64,000 nt of DNA from an uncultured Verrucomicrobiota bacterium (GTDB lineage: Bacteria; Verrucomicrobiota; Verrucomicrobiia; Limisphaerales; CAZIFU01), in assembly GCA_964539075.1 (NCBI GenBank), contig CAZIFU010000057.1, positions 22,153-86,152 of the forward strand. The letters are read 5' to 3'. Positions 1,617 to 64,000 of this stretch are shown one piece after another; the stretch's first letter is position 1, and every line of letters begins with the position of its first letter. A program made the position numbers and the translations under genes. The notes beneath the pieces are model-generated. The model worked only from the letters and a program-made list of their open reading frames with translations, searched no databases and was not told the origin of the DNA.

Positions 1617-1942
1617 TTGCCCCTCTCCCCAACCCTGCCCATGAACCGTTCGTACCACCGCATGGTCTTGGAGTGCGCCAGTCCTCTGGCGCTTTGGAAG
1701 TCGTGGGTTGTCGAAAGCGCCAGAGGACTGGCGCAGTCCAAGACGCTGACGCGATTAAGTTCGGTTTTCGCCGGTTCAGGGGCGCAAATCGCGAACTTTG
1801 GTCCGTGGACTCTCTCCCCGTCGGACGGGGAGAGGGAGAAGCCCTCCGAGATCTGTTGTTGGTCACCAAACGGCGACTGTCCGCGATTCGTGGGGAATAT
1901 TTCCCTCTCCCCATCCGATGGGGAGAGGGACAGGGAGAGGGG
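1617..1942. repeat. Composite palindromic MITE-like element, copy 1 (core 1638-1810, long hairpin 1665-1744, GGGGAGAGGG-type hairpins 1811-1836 and 1903-1942)
   Basis: About 170-nt core nearly identical to 5947-6118. 31-nt arms 1665-1695/1714-1744 around an 18-nt loop. Right end is the same hairpin type as 6119-6162. Left terminal repeat is degenerate. Confidence 0.85.
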
Positions 1943-5848: not shown

Positions 5849-6162
5849 CCCCTCACCCTGACCCTCTCCCCATCGGATGGGGAGAGGGAAGGCGCGCGGC
5901 CCTTGAGCCTCAGGCTTGCGCGTGCGGCCTGCGCGGAGATTCCCTACCCATGAAACGTTCGTACCACCGCAAGGTCTTGGAGTGCGCCAGTCCTCTGGCG
6001 CTTTCGACAACCCACGACTTCCAAAGCGCCAGAGGACTGGCGCAGTCCAAGACGCTGACGCGATTAAGTTCGGTTTTCGCCGGTTCAGGGGCGCAAACCG
6101 CGAACTTTGGTTCGTGGACCCTCTCCCCTCATCCGATGAGGGGAGAGGGTCAGGGTGAGGGG
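5849..6162. mobile_element. 314-bp MITE-like non-autonomous element, copy 2, with perfect 23-bp terminal inverted repeats
   Basis: Left end cccctcaccctgaccctctcccc (5849-5871) is the exact reverse complement of the right end ggggagagggtcagggtgagggg (6140-6162). Each end is also a local hairpin. Core 5947-6118 matches 1638-1810. No coding capacity. Confidence 0.8.
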
Positions 6163-9660: not shown

Positions 9661-9747
9661 TTTTCGATTTGCGATTTACGATTGACGCATCGCCCGGTTT
9701 ATCCGGCACCGCAAGACGCGCGTCCATCGTAAATCGCAATTCGCAAA
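9661..9747. repeat. Imperfect inverted repeat of the TCGTAAATCGCAAATCG family between argB and argD
   Basis: Arms 9661-9688 and 9720-9747 (3 mismatches in about 27). Single arms of the same family at 52944-52973 and 54414-54445. Confidence 0.75.
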
Positions 9748-9749
9748 TT

Positions 9750-11099
9750 ATGAGAGACATCGCCCCATCGCCGCCCGCCGTCGTGCGCAACGAGACCGCA
9801 ACGATCCAGGCGCTGTTCCAGAAACATGTCGTGCCCACCTATGCGCGCTTCGAGGTTGCGTTCAGCCACGGGCAGGGATGTTACCTGTGGGACGTGACGG
9901 GCAAGCGCTACCTCGACATGGGCGGCGGCATCGCGGTCTGCTCGCTCGGGCACGCGCACCCGGCCATCAGCGAGGCGCTGGCCGCGCAATCGCGCCGGCT
10001 CGTGCACGTCTCCAACCTCTACTATCACGAGCCGCAGGGCCGGCTCGCGCAACAACTGGCCGGCCTCATCGGCCCGGGGAAATGTTTTTTCTGCAACAGC
10101 GGCGCCGAAGCGAACGAAGGATTGTTCAAGCTCGCCCGCAAGTTCGGCCATGACGAAGGGCGTTTTGAAATTCTCACGGCCGCCAATTCCTTCCACGGCC
10201 GGACGCTGGCGGGCATCGCGGCCACCGGCCAGGAGAAGGTGAAGAAAGGATTTGAGCCGCTGGTGACGGGATTCCGCCACGTTCCCTTCAATGACGTGGA
10301 AGCGGCACGGGCGGCCATTTCTCCGGCCACGGTCGCGATTCTGGTGGAGGGCGTCCAAGGCGAAGGCGGCGTTTTGCCGGCGACGCCGGAATATCTGCTG
10401 GGCCTGCGCCGGCTCTGCGACGAGAAGAAGCTGCTGCTGCTGATGGACGGTGTGCAATGCGGCCATTTCCGCACCGGACGCTTTCAAAGCTACCAACGGA
10501 TTCTTGAAGATTGTAGCAGCCGACGTGAGGAGGCTCATTCTTCCCACCTGAACTCCAGTCAGAGCCTCCTCACGTCGGCTGCTACGGAGTTTGTTCCCGA
10601 CGGCATTGCGATGGCCAAGTCGCTGGGCGGCGGGTTCCCCATCGGCGCGATCTGGATTCGCGAGCCGTACGCGGACCTGCTCGGCCCCGGCACGCACGCC
10701 ACGACGTTCGGCGGCACGCCGCTCGGTTGCGCGGTGGCATTGAAAATCCTCGAAGTCATCCAGCAGGAGAAGCTCGACGAAAACGCCCGCGCGATGGGAG
10801 AATTCCTCAAGCGCGAATTGCAACGACTGGCGCGCGAGCACTCGCAGATTTTGTCGGCGGTGCGCGGCCTGGGTTTGATGATCGGGATCGAACTGGCACA
10901 AAACATTCCGGCGTTGGCAGGGAACCAAAACCAATCGGCCTCGGTCCAGATGGTGAACCGCCTGCACGCAGCCGGGTTGATGACGATACCCGCCGGCAAC
11001 CAGGTCATTCGCCTGTTGCCGCCGTTGAACCTGCGGCAAGGGGAAGCGGAAGAGGCGTTGAAGATTCTGGAATCCGTGGTGAGAGATCTGGCCGCGTGA
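9750..11099 (+). CDS. argD: Acetylornithine aminotransferase
   Basis: ORF 9669..11099. The N-terminal 27 codons translate the repeat, so the likely start is ATG 9750 (MRDIAPSP). Motifs YLDMGGGIAVCSLGH, NSGAEANE, LLLLMDGVQCG, AKSLGGGFP (PLP-Lys). Confidence 0.9.
   Translation: MRDIAPSPPAVVRNETATIQALFQKHVVPTYARFEVAFSHGQGCYLWDVTGKRYLDMGGGIAVCSLGHAHPAISEALAAQSRRLVHVSNLYYHEPQGRLAQQLAGLIGPGKCFFCNSGAEANEGLFKLARKFGHDEGRFEILTAANSFHGRTLAGIAATGQEKVKKGFEPLVTGFRHVPFNDVEAARAAISPATVAILVEGVQGEGGVLPATPEYLLGLRRLCDEKKLLLLMDGVQCGHFRTGRFQSYQRILEDCSSRREEAHSSHLNSSQSLLTSAATEFVPDGIAMAKSLGGGFPIGAIWIREPYADLLGPGTHATTFGGTPLGCAVALKILEVIQQEKLDENARAMGEFLKRELQRLAREHSQILSAVRGLGLMIGIELAQNIPALAGNQNQSASVQMVNRLHAAGLMTIPAGNQVIRLLPPLNLRQGEAEEALKILESVVRDLAA
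10513..10585. repeat. Perfect palindromic element in frame inside argD (24-nt arms, 25-nt loop)
   Basis: gtagcagccgacgtgaggaggctc (10513-10536) and its exact reverse complement gagcctcctcacgtcggctgctac (10562-10585). Related copy at 59926-59992. Confidence 0.9.
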
Positions 11100-14022: not shown

Positions 14023-14055
14023 TGAAGGCGATCAGAACTCGACGGGGTTTCCCAA

Positions 14056-14124
14056 GGTGGGGCGAGACTCCGTCGAGCCAATTCTATTCACGTCCGGCTC
14101 GGCTCGACAGAGTCTCGCCCCACC
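14056..14124. repeat. 24-nt-arm hairpin repeat downstream of dnaJ
   Basis: ggtggggcgagactccgtcgagcc (14056-14079) vs ggctcgacagagtctcgccccacc (14101-14124). One mismatch, 21-nt loop. Confidence 0.85.
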
Positions 14125-14184
14125 TGCGCAGGATTTATGAAAGCGCCTGGATGAGGCCCACATTTCCGCCCCCTTCGGCTTCAT

Positions 14185-20370: not shown

Positions 20371-20397
20371 GGCTTTGCTTTCATTTGTTGGGGCGCG

Positions 20398-22221
20398 TTA
20401 GTGCCGATACAGGAACTCCTCGCTGTTGATCAAAGCCCAGGCGATGTCCACCCAGTCGCCGCGTTTTTTCCCACCAGCCGCGGTTCCGGACTTGTCGGAC
20501 CGGGCGGGCGCTCCGGGCGTGCCATACTCTTGAGCGACCTTTACCTCCTCCGGCGTTGGGAAGCGTGATAAAATGGTCAGATAAAGTTCCTCCACGATTT
20601 CAGAGTCCTTTCGCTTGGAATCGAGAATCGCCCTGAGCTTGGGGCCTTGTTCCAACTTGCGCTGGATGTGACTCGAATTAAGGAGGTGAAGCGACTGGGC
20701 GGGAAACACCTTGTTGACGCGTTCATTTTCCATCCCGGTGGCGCGTGCCGAGCGTCCGAACAAGGCGAGGAACGGACTGGTGATGCTGCCGTCCGCCAGC
20801 GCAATCGCCGGCGTGTCCGTCGGAATGTAGGTGAACGGCTCCGGGATGGGGCTGGTGTAAAGCTCCGACGTGCCGGTGATCTTGTTGACGGCGTCAATCA
20901 ACACCTCCGCATCCAGCCGGCGCAGCGGGTAGCTCGCAAAATTCGCCCCGGCTTGAGGACCAATGGACTTCGGCTGCGACGAGAGTTGATACGTTCTGGA
21001 GTTCAGGATCAACCGGTAGAGGTGCTTCAAGTCATAGTTGGCCGTGACCAGTTCCTTCTCCAGAAACGCCAGCAATTCGGGGTTGGCGGGCGGGTTGTTC
21101 TCCCGGATATCGTCCGCCTCGTGGATGATGCCCCGCCCCAGCAGCCAGGACCAGACGCGGTTCGCGATGTTGCGGGTGAACCACGGGTTCTTCGGAGTGA
21201 TCAACCAATCGGCAAAGAGTTCGCGCGGATCGCGATTCGGGGGCAATTGGACCTTGCTCCCATCCGGGAAGATCGCCACCACCGGCGCGTCGCTGACCGG
21301 CGGTGCCGTGGAAACTTGCACCCCATTGTTGGTCGCCCGGGCGCTGTTCAGGGGATCCCAGAAAACAATCTCCTCCTTCCACTCGCGGGAGGGCTTGTAC
21401 CCGATCTGCGAGAAGACGACCGCCATGCCCGCCAGCTTGCCAGGTGACCAGGCCTCCGTGCGCGCTCCCATGACCGTCAGAGCCACCGTGGTCGCGATGC
21501 CTTCCGGGGTGCGGTCCTGCATGGCACGATAGAAGTTGGCCGGGCCAACGCGAAAATTGCTGCCGCTCGACGTGAGCAACTCCCGGACGAACCTGTCATA
21601 CGGCTTGTTCCCGGCGATGGAGGCCCGGACCCAGTGGTGATAAGCCTGCGCGGCATTGGGCCAGAGGTTGATGGGAAACTCAGCTTTGATTCGCAGAATG
21701 TCGGCCCACTTCATCGCCCAGTAATCCGCAAACTCTTCCCGCTCCAGCAGGCGGTCTATCAGGCCAAGACGCTTGGTCGGGTCGCGGTTGGAAATGAATT
21801 CACCCGCCTCCCTGGCCGTGGGCAGCGTGCCGATGACATCCAGATAAGCACGCCGGACAAACACGGCGTCCGTGCAACTGTCGGCTGGTTGAACGCGCAT
21901 GTAGGCGAGCTGGTTGAAGACAAAGTCGTCGATGCAATTGCCCGTGAGTGGTTTCCGGGAGACAACGCTCGCCGGCTGCGCGACAGGAGTTCGTTGCGCC
22001 GGCTTCTTCTGCGTTAAAAACCACCCCGCCAGAGCCAGTCCGATCACCCCTGCCCCTCCGGCGATCGCGAGCACCCGAAACCCGGCGCGACGAAACCAAC
22101 CAGAGCGATCGCACGGCTCTTTCAGCGCGGGACACGAAACCGGCTCCGAAGCAGCCGCCCCGAATTCCGGCGCGTCCATCACGTCGGTTTCATTCATATG
22201 GCGCTCCGAGCACAGATTCAA
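20398..22221 (-). CDS. DUF1549/DUF1553 domain protein
   Basis: ORF 607 aa: DDFVFNQL...FVRRAYLDVIGTLPTAREAGEF (DUF1549-like) and a C-terminal DUF1553-like region. Canonical partner of the downstream DUF1501 gene. Confidence 0.8.
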   Translation of the reverse strand: MNLCSERHMNETDVMDAPEFGAAASEPVSCPALKEPCDRSGWFRRAGFRVLAIAGGAGVIGLALAGWFLTQKKPAQRTPVAQPASVVSRKPLTGNCIDDFVFNQLAYMRVQPADSCTDAVFVRRAYLDVIGTLPTAREAGEFISNRDPTKRLGLIDRLLEREEFADYWAMKWADILRIKAEFPINLWPNAAQAYHHWVRASIAGNKPYDRFVRELLTSSGSNFRVGPANFYRAMQDRTPEGIATTVALTVMGARTEAWSPGKLAGMAVVFSQIGYKPSREWKEEIVFWDPLNSARATNNGVQVSTAPPVSDAPVVAIFPDGSKVQLPPNRDPRELFADWLITPKNPWFTRNIANRVWSWLLGRGIIHEADDIRENNPPANPELLAFLEKELVTANYDLKHLYRLILNSRTYQLSSQPKSIGPQAGANFASYPLRRLDAEVLIDAVNKITGTSELYTSPIPEPFTYIPTDTPAIALADGSITSPFLALFGRSARATGMENERVNKVFPAQSLHLLNSSHIQRKLEQGPKLRAILDSKRKDSEIVEELYLTILSRFPTPEEVKVAQEYGTPGAPARSDKSGTAAGGKKRGDWVDIAWALINSEEFLYRH

Positions 22222-38261: not shown

Positions 38262-38545
38262 AAGCACCAAGCTCCAACATCCAAGCACCAGGGAAGCTCC
38301 AAACCTCAATCACCAAAACACGTTTCGGTAGCCCTTTATAAGTATCGGTCCAAATCGCCGCGGGCCGCGACGATTATTGCGCAGCGCGGACAGCCTTGTC
38401 CGCACGTTGATTTGCCGGCACCTCAGACTCGCGGACAAAGCTGTCCGCGCTCCTTTGGTTGCGGTGCCAGCCGCGCTGTGAGAATTGGTGTTTGAGGTTT
38501 CTCTGGAGGTTGGAGCTTGGAATTTGGAGCTTTTCGAGGTTATGC
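38262..38545. repeat. Composite palindrome between convergent genes (inner arms 38383-38403 / 38431-38451; outer imperfect arms about 38262-38335 / 38483-38545)
   Basis: agcgcggacagccttgtccgc vs gcggacaaagctgtccgcgct (1 mismatch). Each arm is itself a mini-palindrome gcggaca..tgtccgc. The outer CCAAGCTCCAA / TTGGAGCTTGG-rich arms are partly complementary. Confidence 0.75.
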
Positions 38546-38564
38546 GGAAACTCCGTGTCTTGCT

Positions 38565-41500
38565 TTATTTCCGCGCCTCCGGCACCACTGTGAGTTTTAC
38601 TTTCTGGCCGTCACGTTGCACGACGATTTCCACCGGCTGGCCGATCTTCACCGCGTCCAACGCGTAGGTGTAATCGTAGATGTTCGTGATTTTCTGACCG
38701 CCGAACTCGATGATGACGTCGCCTCCTTTCAATCCCGCTTTCTCCGCCGGGCTGCCGCCGCGCACACCGCTCAATTTCACGCCCTGCACTTCCGTCGTGT
38801 AGTCCGGGATGGTGCCGAGATAGGCGCGCAACGTCTCGCGCCCGCCGCCTTCGCCGCCGCCGCTGCGCTGCACCTTCGCGTAGTCGGGCCGCGCGCCCGC
38901 CAACAGGTCGAGCACGAGGCCGCGCGCAAACTGCGCCACGCGTTCCATGCCTTCATAGTTCAACTTGTCGGGCTTATCGGTTGGCCGGTGATAATCCTCG
39001 TGGCTGCCGGTGAAGAAATGCAGCACTGGCAGTTGCTTCGGGTAGAACGCGGTCACGTCGGTCGGTAAATACGGGTCGTCCAGCAACGCGACGTTGAACC
39101 CGGCGGCGACGTTCCGCTTCTCGATCAATCGCCGCCACACCGATGACGACCCGACGCCCTGCAAATCGAGCTTGTTGTCCCGCAATCGGCCCACCATGTC
39201 GAAATTCACGTAGGCAACGATGTTGGAAAGCGGCACCGGTGGGTGCTCCGCGAAATGCGACGAGCCGATCAAGCCGATCTCCTCGCCCGACCACAGTGCG
39301 AAGATGACGCCGCGCGGGAACAACGCCGGTTTCTGCTTCTGTTCGGCGGCGAGCGCGGCGGCCAGTTCGAGCACGACGGCGTCGCCGGAGGCGTTGTCGT
39401 CGGCGCCGTTGTGGATCGCGCCCTCCTCGCCCGCGCGTTCGAGCGAACGTCCCTCGCCGTGGCCGAGGTGATCATAGTGCGCGCCGATCAGGACGTATTC
39501 CACCGCGTCATTGCTCCGGAGGGACGAGCTGCGCGAGCCCCCATCTTTCTGAGAAGTTTTCAAATCAGGGACTCGCGTAGCTCGTCCCTCCGGAATAATT
39601 GGCGGCAGCACGGCGACGACATTGCGGTCGGTCTTGCGGATTTGTTCGACGGCCGTCGCGAGCTTGACCCGCGCGTTGGTAATGGCGAAGCCGCCGTCGG
39701 CATGCGGGTCCTCATTGTCGAGCGCGGTCTGGAGCGTTTTCAACTCCTTGCCCGCAGCGCTGAGGATCGCGCCGGCGGCCTTGTCGTTGATACTTGCGGC
39801 GAGGATGCCGGAGCCGGACAGGCTGGTGTCGAAAGTGAGCGGCGTGAGCTGGCCGGCGTTGGGCGAGTTCGGCCCCGTGACGACGAGCAACGCCTTCGCC
39901 CCGCGCTCGCGGGCGATCATCGCCTTGTAGCGCAGGCCGGCGTAGAGGTTGAGTTCCTGGCGGCGTTTCGGCTCCACGTCTTCGGGCACATAACGGAGCA
40001 CGAGCGCGATCTTGTTGCTCACGTCGAGGCCCGCATAGGAATCGTAGCCGCGTCCGGAGGCGGCCGGGACTTTGAGGCCGTAGCCGGCGAAGACGACCTC
40101 GCCTTCGAACTGGCCGTTGGCCGTGAAGGAGAGCGGGCGAAAATCCTCTTCGGGCTTGAAGACGAGTTCGCCAACGTAGCCGCCGGGCACGGTGACGGAC
40201 AAATTATTTTTCCCCGGCACGGTCTTGATGCCGGAGGTGAACTCGAACTGCTGAAAGTAACGGCCGTCATCGCCAAGCGGTTTCAGGCCGGCCCGTTGCA
40301 ACTGTGCTGCGATATACTCCGCGGCCAGTTGCGCGCCGCGCGAGCCGGTCAGCCGGCCTTCGAGCGCGGCGGCGGCGAGATATTCCACGTCGGCGCGCAA
40401 GTCTTTCACGGTGATGTCCGGTGTGAAACCCACGGGCATCGGCGGGCCGGGCTTTTCGGCAGAGACGGAAGCAGGCTTGGGCGGGGGCGTCGCGGAGGTT
40501 TCTTTCCCCGGCGCCGGTTTCGCGCCGCGCGCCGGCGCCGACCTGAGCGCCGCGAGCGCGGCGGAGTGGTTCCAGCGTGCGAGGAAGAGTTGCGATTTGC
40601 CGTCGCTGGTGCGGTTGGCTGTCCAGCAAAGTTTCTGGCCATCGGGCGACAACACGGGCAGGCCATCGAAGCCTTCGGCGAACGTCACGCGTACCGGTTC
40701 GCGCGCGCCGACGGCGTCCACGAGGAACAGCTCGAAATTGGAAAAGCCCAGCTTGTTCGCGGTGAAGATGACGTATTGGCCGGCGGGATGATAGTAAGGA
40801 GCCCAAGCCATGCAGCCGAAGTCGGTGAGCCGGCGCTGGTCGGTGCCGTCCAGCTTCATGCTGTAAATATCGGCGAGGGTTCCCTGCTCGTTGAAGTGGC
40901 GCCAGATGATGCGCTGGCTGTCGGGCGAAAAGAACGGCCCGCCGTCGTAACCCGGCCAGAGCGTGAGCCGCTTCTGGCCGGAGCCATCGGCGTTCATAAT
41001 GTAGATTTCGCCAAAGTACGCAGGGTCGATGGCGAGACGTTTGAGGTCGGCGGCGGAAAGTTTGTTGGTCGGGTAAGCGTCGCGCAGCGAGCAGAAGACG
41101 ATGTTTTTGCCGTCCGGCGAATATGCGCCCTCGGCATCGTAGCCGGGCGCCGTGGTGAGGCGCTTGAGTTGCGAGCCTTCACGACGCGCGGAAAAAATGT
41201 CCATCTGCTCGTCGTAATCCCACGAATAACGGCGCTCCTGGCCGGCGGCGCGGAATTCCAACTCGGCCCTTTGCTTCGCGCGCGCCTGCGGATCGAGATG
41301 CGTGGAGGCGAAGAGCACTTCGTCGCTGCCGGGGCGGAAGAACGCGCAGGTGGTCTTGCCGAGGCCGGGGGAGACGCGGTGGTTGTCGCCGGTTTCCAGA
41401 TCGAGCAGGAAGATCTGGTAGAACGGATTGTCCGGATCCCGTTCGCTCTGGAAAATGAGCGCCTTGCCGTCGGGCGAGAAGTAGCCTTCGCCGCTGCGCC

Positions 41501-41651
41501 GGCCCTCGAAGGTGAGCTGGCGCGTCTCGCTGAGAAATTGGGCTTCGCCGGCGGGGGCCGTTGGCGCGGCGGGCGCCGTCTGAAACATCACGGCAGCGAC
41601 GCACGCGGCCGCGAGCCATGTCACGCAGAACCTCAACTTCATGGCTGTCAT
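38565..41651 (-). CDS. Secreted multidomain peptidase: TolB-like WD40/PD40 beta-propeller + M28 aminopeptidase + C-terminal PDZ
   Basis: ORF 38565..42071. The first 140 codons cross a repeat, so the start is taken at MTAMKLRFCV (41651). PD40-like repeats (YSPDGK, FSPDSQ), M28 motifs (IGAHYDHLGHG, NGADDNASG, FALWSGEEIGLIGS), PDZ (GSPAEKAGLKGGDVIIEFGG). Confidence 0.8.
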   Translation of the reverse strand: MTAMKLRFCVTWLAAACVAAVMFQTAPAAPTAPAGEAQFLSETRQLTFEGRRSGEGYFSPDGKALIFQSERDPDNPFYQIFLLDLETGDNHRVSPGLGKTTCAFFRPGSDEVLFASTHLDPQARAKQRAELEFRAAGQERRYSWDYDEQMDIFSARREGSQLKRLTTAPGYDAEGAYSPDGKNIVFCSLRDAYPTNKLSAADLKRLAIDPAYFGEIYIMNADGSGQKRLTLWPGYDGGPFFSPDSQRIIWRHFNEQGTLADIYSMKLDGTDQRRLTDFGCMAWAPYYHPAGQYVIFTANKLGFSNFELFLVDAVGAREPVRVTFAEGFDGLPVLSPDGQKLCWTANRTSDGKSQLFLARWNHSAALAALRSAPARGAKPAPGKETSATPPPKPASVSAEKPGPPMPVGFTPDITVKDLRADVEYLAAAALEGRLTGSRGAQLAAEYIAAQLQRAGLKPLGDDGRYFQQFEFTSGIKTVPGKNNLSVTVPGGYVGELVFKPEEDFRPLSFTANGQFEGEVVFAGYGLKVPAASGRGYDSYAGLDVSNKIALVLRYVPEDVEPKRRQELNLYAGLRYKAMIARERGAKALLVVTGPNSPNAGQLTPLTFDTSLSGSGILAASINDKAAGAILSAAGKELKTLQTALDNEDPHADGGFAITNARVKLATAVEQIRKTDRNVVAVLPPIIPEGRATRVPDLKTSQKDGGSRSSSLRSNDAVEYVLIGAHYDHLGHGEGRSLERAGEEGAIHNGADDNASGDAVVLELAAALAAEQKQKPALFPRGVIFALWSGEEIGLIGSSHFAEHPPVPLSNIVAYVNFDMVGRLRDNKLDLQGVGSSSVWRRLIEKRNVAAGFNVALLDDPYLPTDVTAFYPKQLPVLHFFTGSHEDYHRPTDKPDKLNYEGMERVAQFARGLVLDLLAGARPDYAKVQRSGGGEGGGRETLRAYLGTIPDYTTEVQGVKLSGVRGGSPAEKAGLKGGDVIIEFGGQKITNIYDYTYALDAVKIGQPVEIVVQRDGQKVKLTVVPEARK
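39516..39593. repeat. 78-nt hairpin element in frame inside the peptidase gene
   Basis: ccggagggacgagctgcgcgagccc (39516-39540) vs gggactcgcgtagctcgtccctccg (39568-39592). Same family as 41707-41801. Confidence 0.85.
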
Positions 41652-41706
41652 GCTATGCCGTGCGCGCGCGGCGCAAAAGCGCGAAATCACGGGCGGAGGT
41701 CTTTTT

Positions 41707-41801
41707 CGGAGGGACGAGCTACGCGAGTCCCCGTTTGATTCGGAGACGTGAAGGAAGCTTGGGACTCGCGGAAGCTTGGGACTCGCGTCGCTCGTCCCTC
41801 C
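41707..41801. repeat. Intergenic copy of the same hairpin family, with an internal 17-nt tandem duplication
   Basis: Arms 41707-41731 / 41778-41801. gaagcttgggactcgcg occurs twice in tandem (41754-41770, 41771-41787). Confidence 0.85.
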
Positions 41802-41969
41802 AAAGGTGGGCCACCGCCAAGAGCACCCGCCAAGAGCACCCTTGCCAACGTTTCGGCCGCGTGAGAGGCTTGACCAGTTGGAATTGATGCACGATCTGCG
41901 CCGTGAACAATGCCCGGTCTCCCAACGCCGCCAGCGGGGGCTGATTGACCGCCCACCGGCCTGCCCGCC

Positions 41970-55157: not shown

Positions 55158-55197
55158 CCTCTCCTGATGCCATGCGCCAGGACTATTCATTTAAGAA

Positions 55198-55292
55198 ACA
55201 TCCAACATCCAACATCCAACGCCCAACATCCCATGGTTGGGCATCCGGACGTTCATTGGGAATTGGATGTTGGATGTTGGATGTTGGATGTT
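55198..55292. repeat. Heptamer-array inverted repeat (AACATCC x4 facing TTGGATG x4)
   Basis: aacatccaacatccaacatccaacgcccaacatccca ... tgggaattggatgttggatgttggatgttggatgtt. Ends 8 nt before the recO ATG. Confidence 0.85.
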
Positions 55293-55961: not shown

Positions 55962-56048
55962 GCCACCGCACTCCAGGACGCTGACGCGCCATCTGCCGCT
56001 CCCGAAGTGCGCGAAGCGTCTTGGAGTGCGCCAGCCCTCTGGCGCTTT
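55962..56048. repeat. Rearranged partial copy of the long-hairpin repeat (outer arm halves only)
   Basis: cgcactccaggacgctgacgcg and gcgtcttggagtgcgccagccctctggcgcttt match the outer parts of 1665-1744 and 5974-6053 but lack the loop. Confidence 0.7.
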
Positions 56049-56219
56049 TAAGATGCACGAGTTTTATCCAGCTTTGTTGGTCGCATAATCAAACTTCAAG
56101 AAGATTAAAGACGCGTGCAAAACAAACTGGCTAACGGTCGCGGAAAGGATTTTGCAAATGAGGGACGGATCGGCGGGAAATAACTTTGCGTAGAGCGCGA
56201 ACGCTGATACCTTGCCAGC

Positions 56220-58974: not shown

Positions 58975-58997
<23 letters not shown>
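58527..58997 (-). CDS. PIN-domain (VapC-like) toxin
   Basis: ORF 156 aa: VYLETTIPSLLTA...DAAHIAVAAVHRMDFLLTWNCRHIAN. The first 23 nt overlap the end of ispG. Confidence 0.75.
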
Positions 58998-60902
<1,905 letters not shown>

Positions 60903-60906
<4 letters not shown>

Positions 60907-62581: not shown

Positions 62582-64000
62582 ATGCCTGTGGATTCCACGC
62601 ATCCCGATTACGACGCCAAACTCGTTGCGTGGGGGTGCGCCCGTGATGTCATTGCGGGTGAAAATGCCGTGAAGGCCGCTGCCACCCGTTAGCTGCCGCG
62701 GCTGGATTCCCGGACCGACGATGAGTATGCCGCTTACAAGAAGCGCGCCTCCTTCTTCAACGCCACCGCGCGCACGGCTAAAGGCTACCTTGGGCTTGTT
62801 TTCCGACGACCGCCGTTTGTGGAACTACCGGAGGACGGCCGTCGAGAAGGAGCAAATGAGAGTGGACGGCCGCACCTCACCCCAACCCTCTCCCCAGAGC
62901 GGAGAGGGAGGTCTTTGCAGACAGCCACTGTGTCCGCGCTCGCGAGAGCGATGGAGCAGTTTCGCAACGATGCGGACATGCTGGGCACCGCCCTGCTGAA
63001 TCACGCCAAGAGTATCGTGAGTGAGGTTGTGGCTGTCGGACGTGCCGGCACGCTCATTGATTGGGAGAGCGATTTTGAGAACCGCGTGCATGCTTCGCTC
63101 TACGCCGCTGAGAACATCCTCAATTGGCGGGTCGGGCGGATCAACGGCCGCAACATTCCGACGATGGTTGTCCTCCATGAAGCGTCCGGCGCGCGACCGT
63201 TGCCAGGTAAAGATGAAGATGCCTTCGCCACGGTGACGCCCGAACAAATCCGCTTTCTGAAACTCGTTCGCGGCGAGGCTGTGGCCGACTCCAAGAAGCT
63301 GCCTTACTCCTACGCCGTCGAAATCCGGCAGCGTATCGACGTTCAGGCGGGTCAGCGGAAGCAGCGCAAAAGCGAGTGGAAACTCGTGGAGACTCGCGTG
63401 CCTTTGCGCCTTGGAAAACCTTTGCCGCTGATTCCGTTTGTGTTTCACGGTTCCCGCCATTCCCTGCCTGCCGTTGAGAAGTTGCCGCTTGCCGACCTCA
63501 TTGCCGTCAATCATGATCACTACCAGCTCAATGCCGATTACAAGCACGGCGTCCATTTCACCGCCCTGCCGACTGCCTGGGTGAGCGGCTTTGACAAATC
63601 CTCGACGCTCCGCATTGGTTCAAGCACGGCCTGGGTGACTGAGACGCCGGGTGCCACCGCCGGATTCCTGGAATTCACCGGCCAGGGGCTGGAAACCTTT
63701 GAGCGAGCGATGGACCGTGATGAGAAGCTGCTCGCTGTGCTTGGCTCGCGCCTGTTGGAATCACAGAAGAAAGTGGGTGAAACCGCGCAAGCCATCGAGC
63801 TTCGGCAGAGTGGCGAGAACAGCATCCTTGCGAACCTTGCCACGAGTGTCAGCGCCTCGCTGACGCAAGCACTTCGTTGGGCTTACTGGTGGAACTCAAC
63901 TGAAGAATCCCCCGATGATGTGACGAATGAGCAGGTGCTCGTTGAATTGAATACGGACTTCAGCACGAAGGGACTGAGCGCACCGGAGATCCAATCCATC
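62582..64000 (+). pseudogene. DUF4055-type phage portal-like protein, interrupted by in-frame TAG at 62690-62692; 3' end beyond window
   Basis: MPVDSTHPDYDAKLVAWGCARDVIAGENAVKAAATR*LPRLDSRTDDEYAAYKKRASFFNATARTAKGYLGLVFRRPP.... I checked that the same frame stays open from 62693 to 64000. Family call from memory of the DUF4055 N-terminal consensus (..YLP..Y..Y..RA.FYNAT.RT). Confidence 0.65.
62873..62911. repeat. GGAGAGGG-type hairpin in frame inside the portal-like gene
   Basis: cacctcaccccaaccctctccccagagcggagagggagg. Encodes HLTPTLSPERRGR. Confidence 0.75.

Follow-up and report, generated by a model that had tools for sequence, protein, structure and literature searches.

Two copies of a hairpin repeat with reverse-complemented loops

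The 64,000-nucleotide stretch analyzed here (positions 22,153 to 86,152 of contig CAZIFU010000057.1, GenBank assembly GCA_964539075.1; referred to below as the window) contains two copies of a hairpin-forming repeat. Two minus-strand genes, yicC and a DUF1552 gene, border the 566-bp spacer that holds copy 1. Copy 2 is in a spacer of 534 bp whose neighbors are the plus-strand genes rpsI and argC, and the rpsI terminator lies upstream of it. Otherwise the window is ordinary chromosomal DNA, with arg genes, grpE/dnaJ, DUF1501/DUF1549/DUF1553 genes, sulfatases, recO, ispG, and rseP. The best non-self relatives of YicC were 75% identical and came from Pedosphaera-like Verrucomicrobiota metagenome-assembled genomes (MAGs); the host of the two paralogous hairpin copies is a Pedosphaera-like Verrucomicrobiota genome. 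Because the next-closest YicC is only 75% identical, a close relative is lacking for comparison of orthologous loci, and look-ups with the exact proteins (rpsI, argC, yicC, and the DUF1552 gene) returned only short Logan contigs. Logan contigs from runs SRR9952630 and SRR9952632 matched the window exactly and stopped at the repeat edges, 1636 and 5875. GC skew within the window gave no usable signal for the direction of replication.

The two copies have the same orientation (plus strand) and can be aligned from 1633 to 1819 and from 5942 to 6128, a homology block of 187 nt with six substitutions when the hairpin is excluded. Similarity ends sharply beyond these limits. Position-by-position comparison demonstrated that the left hairpin arms (1665-1695 and 5974-6004) are identical at 31/31 positions, as are the right arms (1714-1744 and 6023-6053). 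The loop, or spacer, of copy 1 (1696-1713, GGAAGTCGTGGGTTGTCG) is the exact reverse complement of the loop of copy 2 (6005-6022, CGACAACCCACGACTTCC), both read on the plus strand. Read directly along that strand, the two 18-nt loops are unlike at 12 of 18 positions. Set against the bottom strand of copy 2, the top strand of copy 1 matches at all but 2 of 80 positions.

The sole mismatch within the arms is a G·G (G1673·G1736 in copy 1), which is found at the equivalent position in copy 2 (offset, 4309) and serves as an outer-stem orientation marker that is un-inverted between the copies. These direct readings bear out the initial annotation of the window, in which 31-nt-arm hairpins with exactly reverse-complemented loops and a positionally conserved asymmetric arm mismatch had been recognized, and they agree with its statement that ordinary point divergence cannot yield such a loop. 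Two of its details needed adjustment. Collinear arms and about 100 nt of collinear flank on each side had been described; the arms are indeed identical, but collinearity extends over only 32 nt of left flank (1633-1664, three mismatches, including T1663 versus A5972) and 75 nt of right flank (1745-1819, three mismatches). Similarly, the inversion had been confined to the loop plus at most a perfect inner stem of 21 bp, and although this confinement holds, the perfect inner stem is 22 bp (1674-1695 paired with 1714-1735).

The hairpin is no chance feature. Its 21-nt arm core occurs five times in the window, compared to 0.00 occurrences expected from shuffled sequences. The hairpin DNA folds at approximately −43 kcal/mol, with folding z-scores of −9 to −10, and the whole copy 1 unit, a long imperfect palindrome that holds the hairpin, folds as a single extended hairpin (−56.7 kcal/mol; z = −8). 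In this fold a left terminal-inverted-repeat-like motif (CCCATGAACCG, 1638-1648, plus strand) pairs with a corresponding right motif (CGGTTCAGGGG, 1772-1782, plus strand). The motif CCATGAACCG was found at the place equivalent to the left terminal motif in family copies of other genomes, and CGGTTCA, from the right terminal motif, was also present in other family copies. The inner parts of the unit are unequal, so that the unit of ∼190 nt has a direction.

The arm search also detected a singlet at 56010-56050 (plus strand), which consists of the left arm only (GTCTTGGAGTGCGCCAGCCCTCTGGCGCTTT), with the partner arm missing. This solo arm is preceded by a right-arm-like remnant (GCACTCCAGGACGCTGACGCG) at 55965-55990, between recO and a Uma2-family gene, and the region 55965-56050 looks like a decayed or rearranged family copy.

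A dispersed family with REPIN-like architecture

A scan of one genome per species with an exact-match pattern for the arm core (17-nt arm) returned 43 loci, nearly all in Verrucomicrobiota-type MAGs. The family is present in about a dozen Verrucomicrobiota-like MAGs, and 24 of the 43 loci belong to a single one (CAVVMW, with contigs of 0.2 to 1.25 Mb), in which a relaxed search found at least 27 copies. In total, the relaxed search yielded 49 distinct copies plus six solo arms, the arms being located by nhmmer. According to crude gene calls, the copies are nearly all intergenic. In a loop-specific scan of metagenomes, three of the seven hits were true family members.

One of the relatives provides a presence-absence comparison. 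The copy 2 unit is 85% identical over ∼200 nt to an element in locus L007 (1527-1741), which is situated in the spacer between a DUF1553 gene and a DUF1501 gene; the orthologous spacer in the window (20371-20397) is only 27 nt long and the element is missing from it. The L007 contig is labeled Bifidobacterium, a label that is probably the result of mis-binning of a contig from a related MAG. A difference of this kind is expected of a mobile or once-mobile repeat, and we infer that a transposase mobilized the family.

The family is apparently unnamed and probably undescribed, as it had no match in Rfam or in the plasmid and phage collections and is absent from the literature on repetitive extragenic palindromic (REP) sequences cited here. 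The Rfam search gave no match in the window at gathering thresholds; a known RNA family was rejected as an identity for the element, with only generic long-hairpin microRNA-precursor models appearing at E-value thresholds, far under their cut-offs. The imperfect-palindrome shape also suggested an integron attC site, which was rejected as well; the consensus of the R′/R″ core sites is absent and there is no cassette context.

The architecture is that of a REP doublet, or REPIN (REP doublet forming hairpin). Within each 31-nt arm is a small palindrome of its own, built of a 7-bp stem around a 4-nt center: GCGCCAG-TCCT-CTGGCGC in the left arm (1675-1692 in copy 1) and GCGCCAG-AGGA-CTGGCGC in the right arm (1717-1734). 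The hairpin is therefore an inverted doublet of short palindromes separated by an 18-nt spacer, within the ∼190-nt quasi-palindrome, and a long hairpin or a ‘clover’ of small hairpins are its alternative folds, as described for REPINs (PMC3116915, PMC3337134). Further features of REPINs were found in the family: the unit is a short imperfect palindrome, an inverted pair of units forms a predicted hairpin, and dispersed extragenic copies, accompanied by singlets, have conserved arms, variable spacers, and compensatory changes. The arms are near-invariant among copies that were, however, found with an exact 17-nt arm pattern. At position 9, an outer-stem polymorphism was concordant between the two arms in 41 copies versus discordant in 6. 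Double changes that preserve pairing between the arms were present in L016 and L040:3809, and double changes that preserve pairing within an arm were present in L041:6008, L042:3240, and L050.

REPs are recognized in addition by a GTAG or CGTC tetranucleotide directly at the foot of the stem (PMC3733652). No GTAG tag stands beside the REP stem in this family. CGTC is present on a single arm, at 7 nt from the stem (AGCGTCTTGGACT-GCGCCAG), and CGTT replaces it in the CAVVMW MAG; the stem is also without the A/T first pairs and the CCA tail known for CGTC REPs.

REPINs have in addition a cognate REP-associated tyrosine transposase (RAYT; Y1/HUH, PF01797), whose gene is usually single-copy and has the same REPs on its flanks. 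A Pfam scan of 40 of the ∼50 predicted open reading frames (ORFs) of the window revealed no recombinase, invertase, or Y1/HUH transposase, and a tblastn search of the window and 69 loci with a RayT-like query sequence detected no full-length Y1 transposase. RayT-like N-terminal pseudogene fragments were detected ∼140 nt from family copies in L033 and L040, and the same kind of fragment was hairpin-free in 16 other loci. Their closest database relatives were all truncated ORFs of 31 to 75 amino acids, some of them annotated as RayT or PF01797. The fragments (L033, 3768-3863 and 2461-2547; L040, 631-726; and L052 to L067) are PF01797-related, are ∼30 to 50 amino acids long, and share a conserved upstream region of ∼150 nt; they turn up repeatedly in many soil metagenomes, invariably in truncated form. 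It seems that this shortened transposase 5′ end is an independent repeat module. As the tag is missing in its described form and no RAYT flanked by these repeats was found in the window or the 69 loci, the element is referred to here as REPIN-like rather than as a proven REPIN.

Loop orientation across the family and the route of inversion

The flanks are asymmetric, and each copy can therefore be oriented independently of its loop. Approximately 7 of the ∼39 scorable copies are flipped (∼7:32; binomial P = 7e-5 against 1:1, a value that is a guide only given the phylogenetic non-independence of the copies). Within the CAVVMW MAG, where the loop consensus is CGCGTCCCCAGGGTCCAA, 19 of the 23 orientable copies read one way and 4 are reversed (P = 0.003, to be taken with the same caution). 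The reversed copies are L040:3809 and, as scored by flank motifs, L002, L031, and L034. The loop of L040:3809 is the exact reverse complement of the loop of L035, the copy with which its flanks are most similar (collinear across ∼30 nt of left flank and 75 nt of right flank), so that the pattern of the window pair is seen again here.

In the subfamily to which the window belongs, copy 2, L003, L007, and L047 have one orientation, the majority one relative to the flanks, and copy 1 and L050/L051 have the other. The loop of L050/L051 is the exact reverse complement of the loop of L047. Loop variant CGACAACC (‘A’) is common to copy 1 and copy 2, and variant CGACCACC (‘C’) is common to L050 and L047, a pattern of sharing that indicates at least two independent flips in this subfamily. 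L024, which belongs to a third group, has a loop opposite to those of L020, L027, and L037. Flipped loops were found in at least four genome or metagenome groups, and a one-off event is ruled out.

Loop orientation is not tied to transcription. In the CAVVMW MAG it was consistent with the direction of the genes at 10 copies versus inconsistent at 11, with flipped copies on both sides, and in the window both loops read alike along the direction of the neighboring genes. Neither hairpin has a T-run or a consensus site that would make it an intrinsic terminator or promoter, and the rpsI terminator is a separate structure upstream of copy 2.

The explanation that we favor, with a probability of about two in three, is that a dispersed REPIN-like repeat had the spacer of copy 1 inverted in situ, most likely by a replication template switch. 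Both copies would derive from a common ancestor, after which the copy 1 spacer, along with a stretch of undefinable extent from the perfect 22-bp inner stem, would have been inverted in place. In the route that we infer, a nascent strand would leave its template inside one arm, anneal to the complementary arm, copy the spacer backwards, and return to its template within the second arm; the same product could come from recombination of one arm with the other, mediated by a hairpin or cruciform. Neither the G·G mismatch nor the asymmetric flanks took part in the inversion, a fact that places both breakpoints within the perfect 22-bp inner stem, and an exact reverse-complement spacer with nothing else changed is what template switching between the arms predicts. 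Template switching is known to invert hairpin loops and to homogenize arms (PMC8794818, PMC8604942, PMC7202029). Inversions of this kind have precedents in plastid hairpins, in ribosomal RNA and microRNA hairpins, and in quasipalindromes. The features of small inversions were found in three pairs (copy 1/copy 2, L035/L040:3809, and L047/L050), each with an exact reverse complement between inverted repeats and unchanged flanks, and the inversions recurred independently at related hairpins. The initial annotation had pointed to recombination or hairpin-primed copying across the stem, which was a sensible class of mechanism. The flips are apparently sporadic, neutral mutations that recur across the family and not a regulated switch.

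It is possible, but rather unlikely, that ectopic gene conversion overwrote the copy 1 loop and inner stem from a family copy in the opposite orientation, with the conversion tract ending in the arms. The arms are identical and read the same on both strands, so that an inverted paralogue has homology on both sides of the loop, and one genome does hold copies in both orientations. However, a random inverted donor would rarely be exact: among 171 pairs of loops in one MAG, the median distance was 4 of 18 positions and only 2 pairs were identical, one of which is the flipped pair, and this pair has the most similar flanks as well. In the two best-resolved cases, the window pair and L035/L040:3809, it is the copy most similar in its flanks that carries the exact reverse-complement loop. 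An in situ event is favored over a random inverted paralogue for these reasons, and the homology of 22 to 31 bp per side is also short for RecA-dependent conversion. An assembly artefact, in which the assembler crossed the inverted repeat wrongly at one locus, is the least probable of the alternatives. The window does come from a metagenome-type assembly, copy 1 top strand and copy 2 bottom strand differ at so few positions, and the k = 31 Logan contigs of SRR9952630 and SRR9952632 are interrupted at the edges of the repeat, which indicates that the region is hard to assemble. Like flips, however, occur in a MAG with contigs of 0.2 to 1.25 Mb, which are likely from long reads, and in several independent assemblies. 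Furthermore, the G·G mismatch is 22 nt from the loop, and any spanning read or k-mer of at least 24 nt should therefore fix the orientation.

It is quite unlikely that the flips are the footprint of RAYT-like transposition of single-stranded DNA, with orientation recording the chemistry, or that the long perfect hairpins still invert often enough for this to be measured within populations. The specific proposal of a RAYT-like Y1/HUH enzyme that takes the REP-spacer-REP core out of either strand, as a single-stranded DNA hairpin, and puts it back at a REP singlet in either orientation, with the outer flanks unchanged, is decidedly improbable. It would fit the REPIN-like architecture and the singlets, the published REPIN excisions that remove the spacer with parts of both REPs and leave a singlet (PMC3116915, PMC3337134), and the proximity of RayT-like fragments to copies in L033 and L040. 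Yet the transposase searches found no full-length Y1 enzyme in the window or the 69 loci, the fragments are hairpin-free elsewhere, the stem has no GTAG tag beside it, and such re-insertion leaves unexplained that the exact reverse-complement loop is carried by the closest-flank copy. A programmed invertible element that actively interconverts in the population, similar to phase variation or to parvovirus flip/flop, is very improbable, even though one state is the exact reverse complement of the other and each is found repeatedly across genomes. No invertase or nickase was found among the window ORFs scanned, the hairpins are internal rather than terminal, the state frequencies are ∼18:82 and not 50:50, and there is neither a correlation of orientation with gene direction nor a terminator or promoter signature. 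The invertible part, 18 to 62 nt, is too short for known recombinase synapses; to our knowledge, none fits a segment of this size. L050 and L051, two records of one locus that are perhaps not independent, show the same loop state.

Some points weigh against in situ inversion of a REPIN-like repeat. With identical arms, the product would be the same whether it came from template switching, from recombination between the arms, or from conversion by an inverted paralogue. The REPIN label refers to architecture only; no RAYT flanked by these repeats was found in the window and 69 loci, there is no GTAG tag, and the copy number in the window is low (two copies and one singlet in 64 kb). The census of flips comprises only ∼39 copies, which were found by exact match and are phylogenetically non-independent, and three of the flips were called from short flank motifs alone. 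Either locus may also hold a mixture of orientations, the analysis being based on assembled sequence.

Other repeats in the window and comparison with known systems

REPIN-style elements with several unrelated sequences abound in the genome. A second hairpin-repeat family has GTAG...CTAC ends (GTAGCAGCCGACGTGAGGAGGCTC ... GAGCCTCCTCACGTCGGCTGCTAC) and occurs inside ORFs, at 10513-10585 in an argD-like aminotransferase ORF (9669-11099), between two Pfam stretches, and at 59923-59995 in the ispG ORF (58975-60906). Intragenic REP/REPIN insertions have been reported in Opitutus terrae (PMC3733652), and by analogy these copies look like in-frame insertions of the same type. A small hairpin, CTCTCCCC-N7-11-GGGGAGAG, is present in five copies (0 expected) at 1812-1834, 1905-1927, 5864-5886, 6121-6147, and 59510-59532; one lies directly 3′ of each copy of the main element and one within the ispG ORF. 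Further long-arm hairpin repeats are found at 39510-39599 and 41705-41804, as well as at 14055-14125 and 38383-38451; one of these is a two-copy family (GGAGGGACGAGCTNCGCGAGYCCC) that has spacers of 26 and 46 nt. Two long ORFs (38517-39068 and 39243-41738) that are flanked by or hold GGAGGGACGAGC hairpins have an odd codon-position GC content (GC1, ∼0.8) and no Pfam match, and may or may not be protein-coding. Inverted arrays of the heptamers AACATCC and GGATGTT form an imperfect palindrome with 39-nt arms at the start of the recO ORF (55197-55292). GC content falls to 0.567 at 56 to 60 kb, the site of Uma2-like and NucS-like nuclease genes, and a DUF4055 (phage-portal-like) ORF (62819-64000) runs off the end of the window; these features may mark the edge of a prophage or island.

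These results add an apparently unnamed REPIN-like repeat family of soil Verrucomicrobiota. In such repeats, mutations that invert the whole 18- to 23-nt spacer enclosed by long perfect arms are common, affecting about one-fifth of the copies, and the family is thus a natural data set on template-switch inversion in bacterial chromosomes. A single flip mimics 12 substitutions, which calls for caution in alignment-based dating or phylogeny of repeats, and assemblers and variant callers deserve similar caution at inverted repeats. The finding reveals neither a new mechanism nor a regulatory switch; most likely, the mechanism is the already known template-switch or hairpin-associated small inversion, and it is the repeat family that is probably undescribed.

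Neither of the two analogies in the initial annotation, parvovirus telomeres and invertible switches, withstood comparison. In parvoviruses, including adeno-associated virus, flip/flop takes place at a terminal hairpin of a linear single-stranded DNA genome that is nicked by Rep/NS1 at a terminal resolution site, and hairpin transfer in each round of replication results in states at ∼1:1. The resemblance consists of two hairpin states in which an internal asymmetric part is reverse-complemented. In contrast, the hairpins in the window occupy internal chromosomal sites between housekeeping genes, no Rep-like gene was present among the ORFs scanned, and the states are at ∼1:4. Site-specific switches such as fimS, Hin/Gin, and the gut ‘invertons’ depend on a tyrosine or serine recombinase, usually encoded adjacent to the switch, and invert hundreds of base pairs that include a promoter or part of a coding sequence. 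They share with the repeat a segment that lies between inverted repeats in two orientations, but the segment here is 18 to 62 nt, no recombinase was found among the ORFs scanned, and orientation is unlinked to gene direction.

The REPINs of Pseudomonas, Escherichia coli, and other bacteria (Bertels & Rainey 2011) are similar in having inverted short palindromes with conserved arms and a variable spacer, compensatory changes, intergenic dispersal, singlet remnants, and hairpin/clover folds, and in having a central asymmetry of the palindrome that marks its orientation (TCCT/AGGA here and TT/AA in REPINs). The present family differs in its unrelated sequence, its Verrucomicrobiota host, the lack of a GTAG tag and of an identified cognate RAYT, and the placement of the unit inside a quasi-palindrome of ∼190 nt that itself has terminal inverted motifs. 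Spacer inversion is not mentioned in the REPIN descriptions (PMC3116915, PMC3337134).

Small inversions in plastid genomes resemble the flips: both loop orientations occur, the inversions recur homoplasiously in close relatives, and they are located in non-coding spacers. That these inversions are associated with hairpins was reportedly described by Kelchner and Wendel in 1996. The plastid inversions are of 5 to 50 bp, lie between inverted repeats of 11 to 24 bp, and flip-flop (Kim & Lee 2005, cited in PMC12928735). The plastid cases are single-copy organelle loci compared across species, whereas the present ones are bacterial paralogues with arms of 22 to 31 bp. The literature on quasipalindrome template switching (PMC5453318, PMC8794818, PMC8604942, PMC7202029) includes loop inversions in ribosomal RNA, mostly of 4 nt and in a few cases of 7 to 8 nt. 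Template switching predicts just such a product, a spacer inverted with breakpoints in the arms; it predicts homogenized arms as well, and it acts on any inverted repeat with no need of a dedicated enzyme. The difference lies in extent and frequency, with full spacers of 18 to 23 nt inverted here in about one-fifth of the members of the family.

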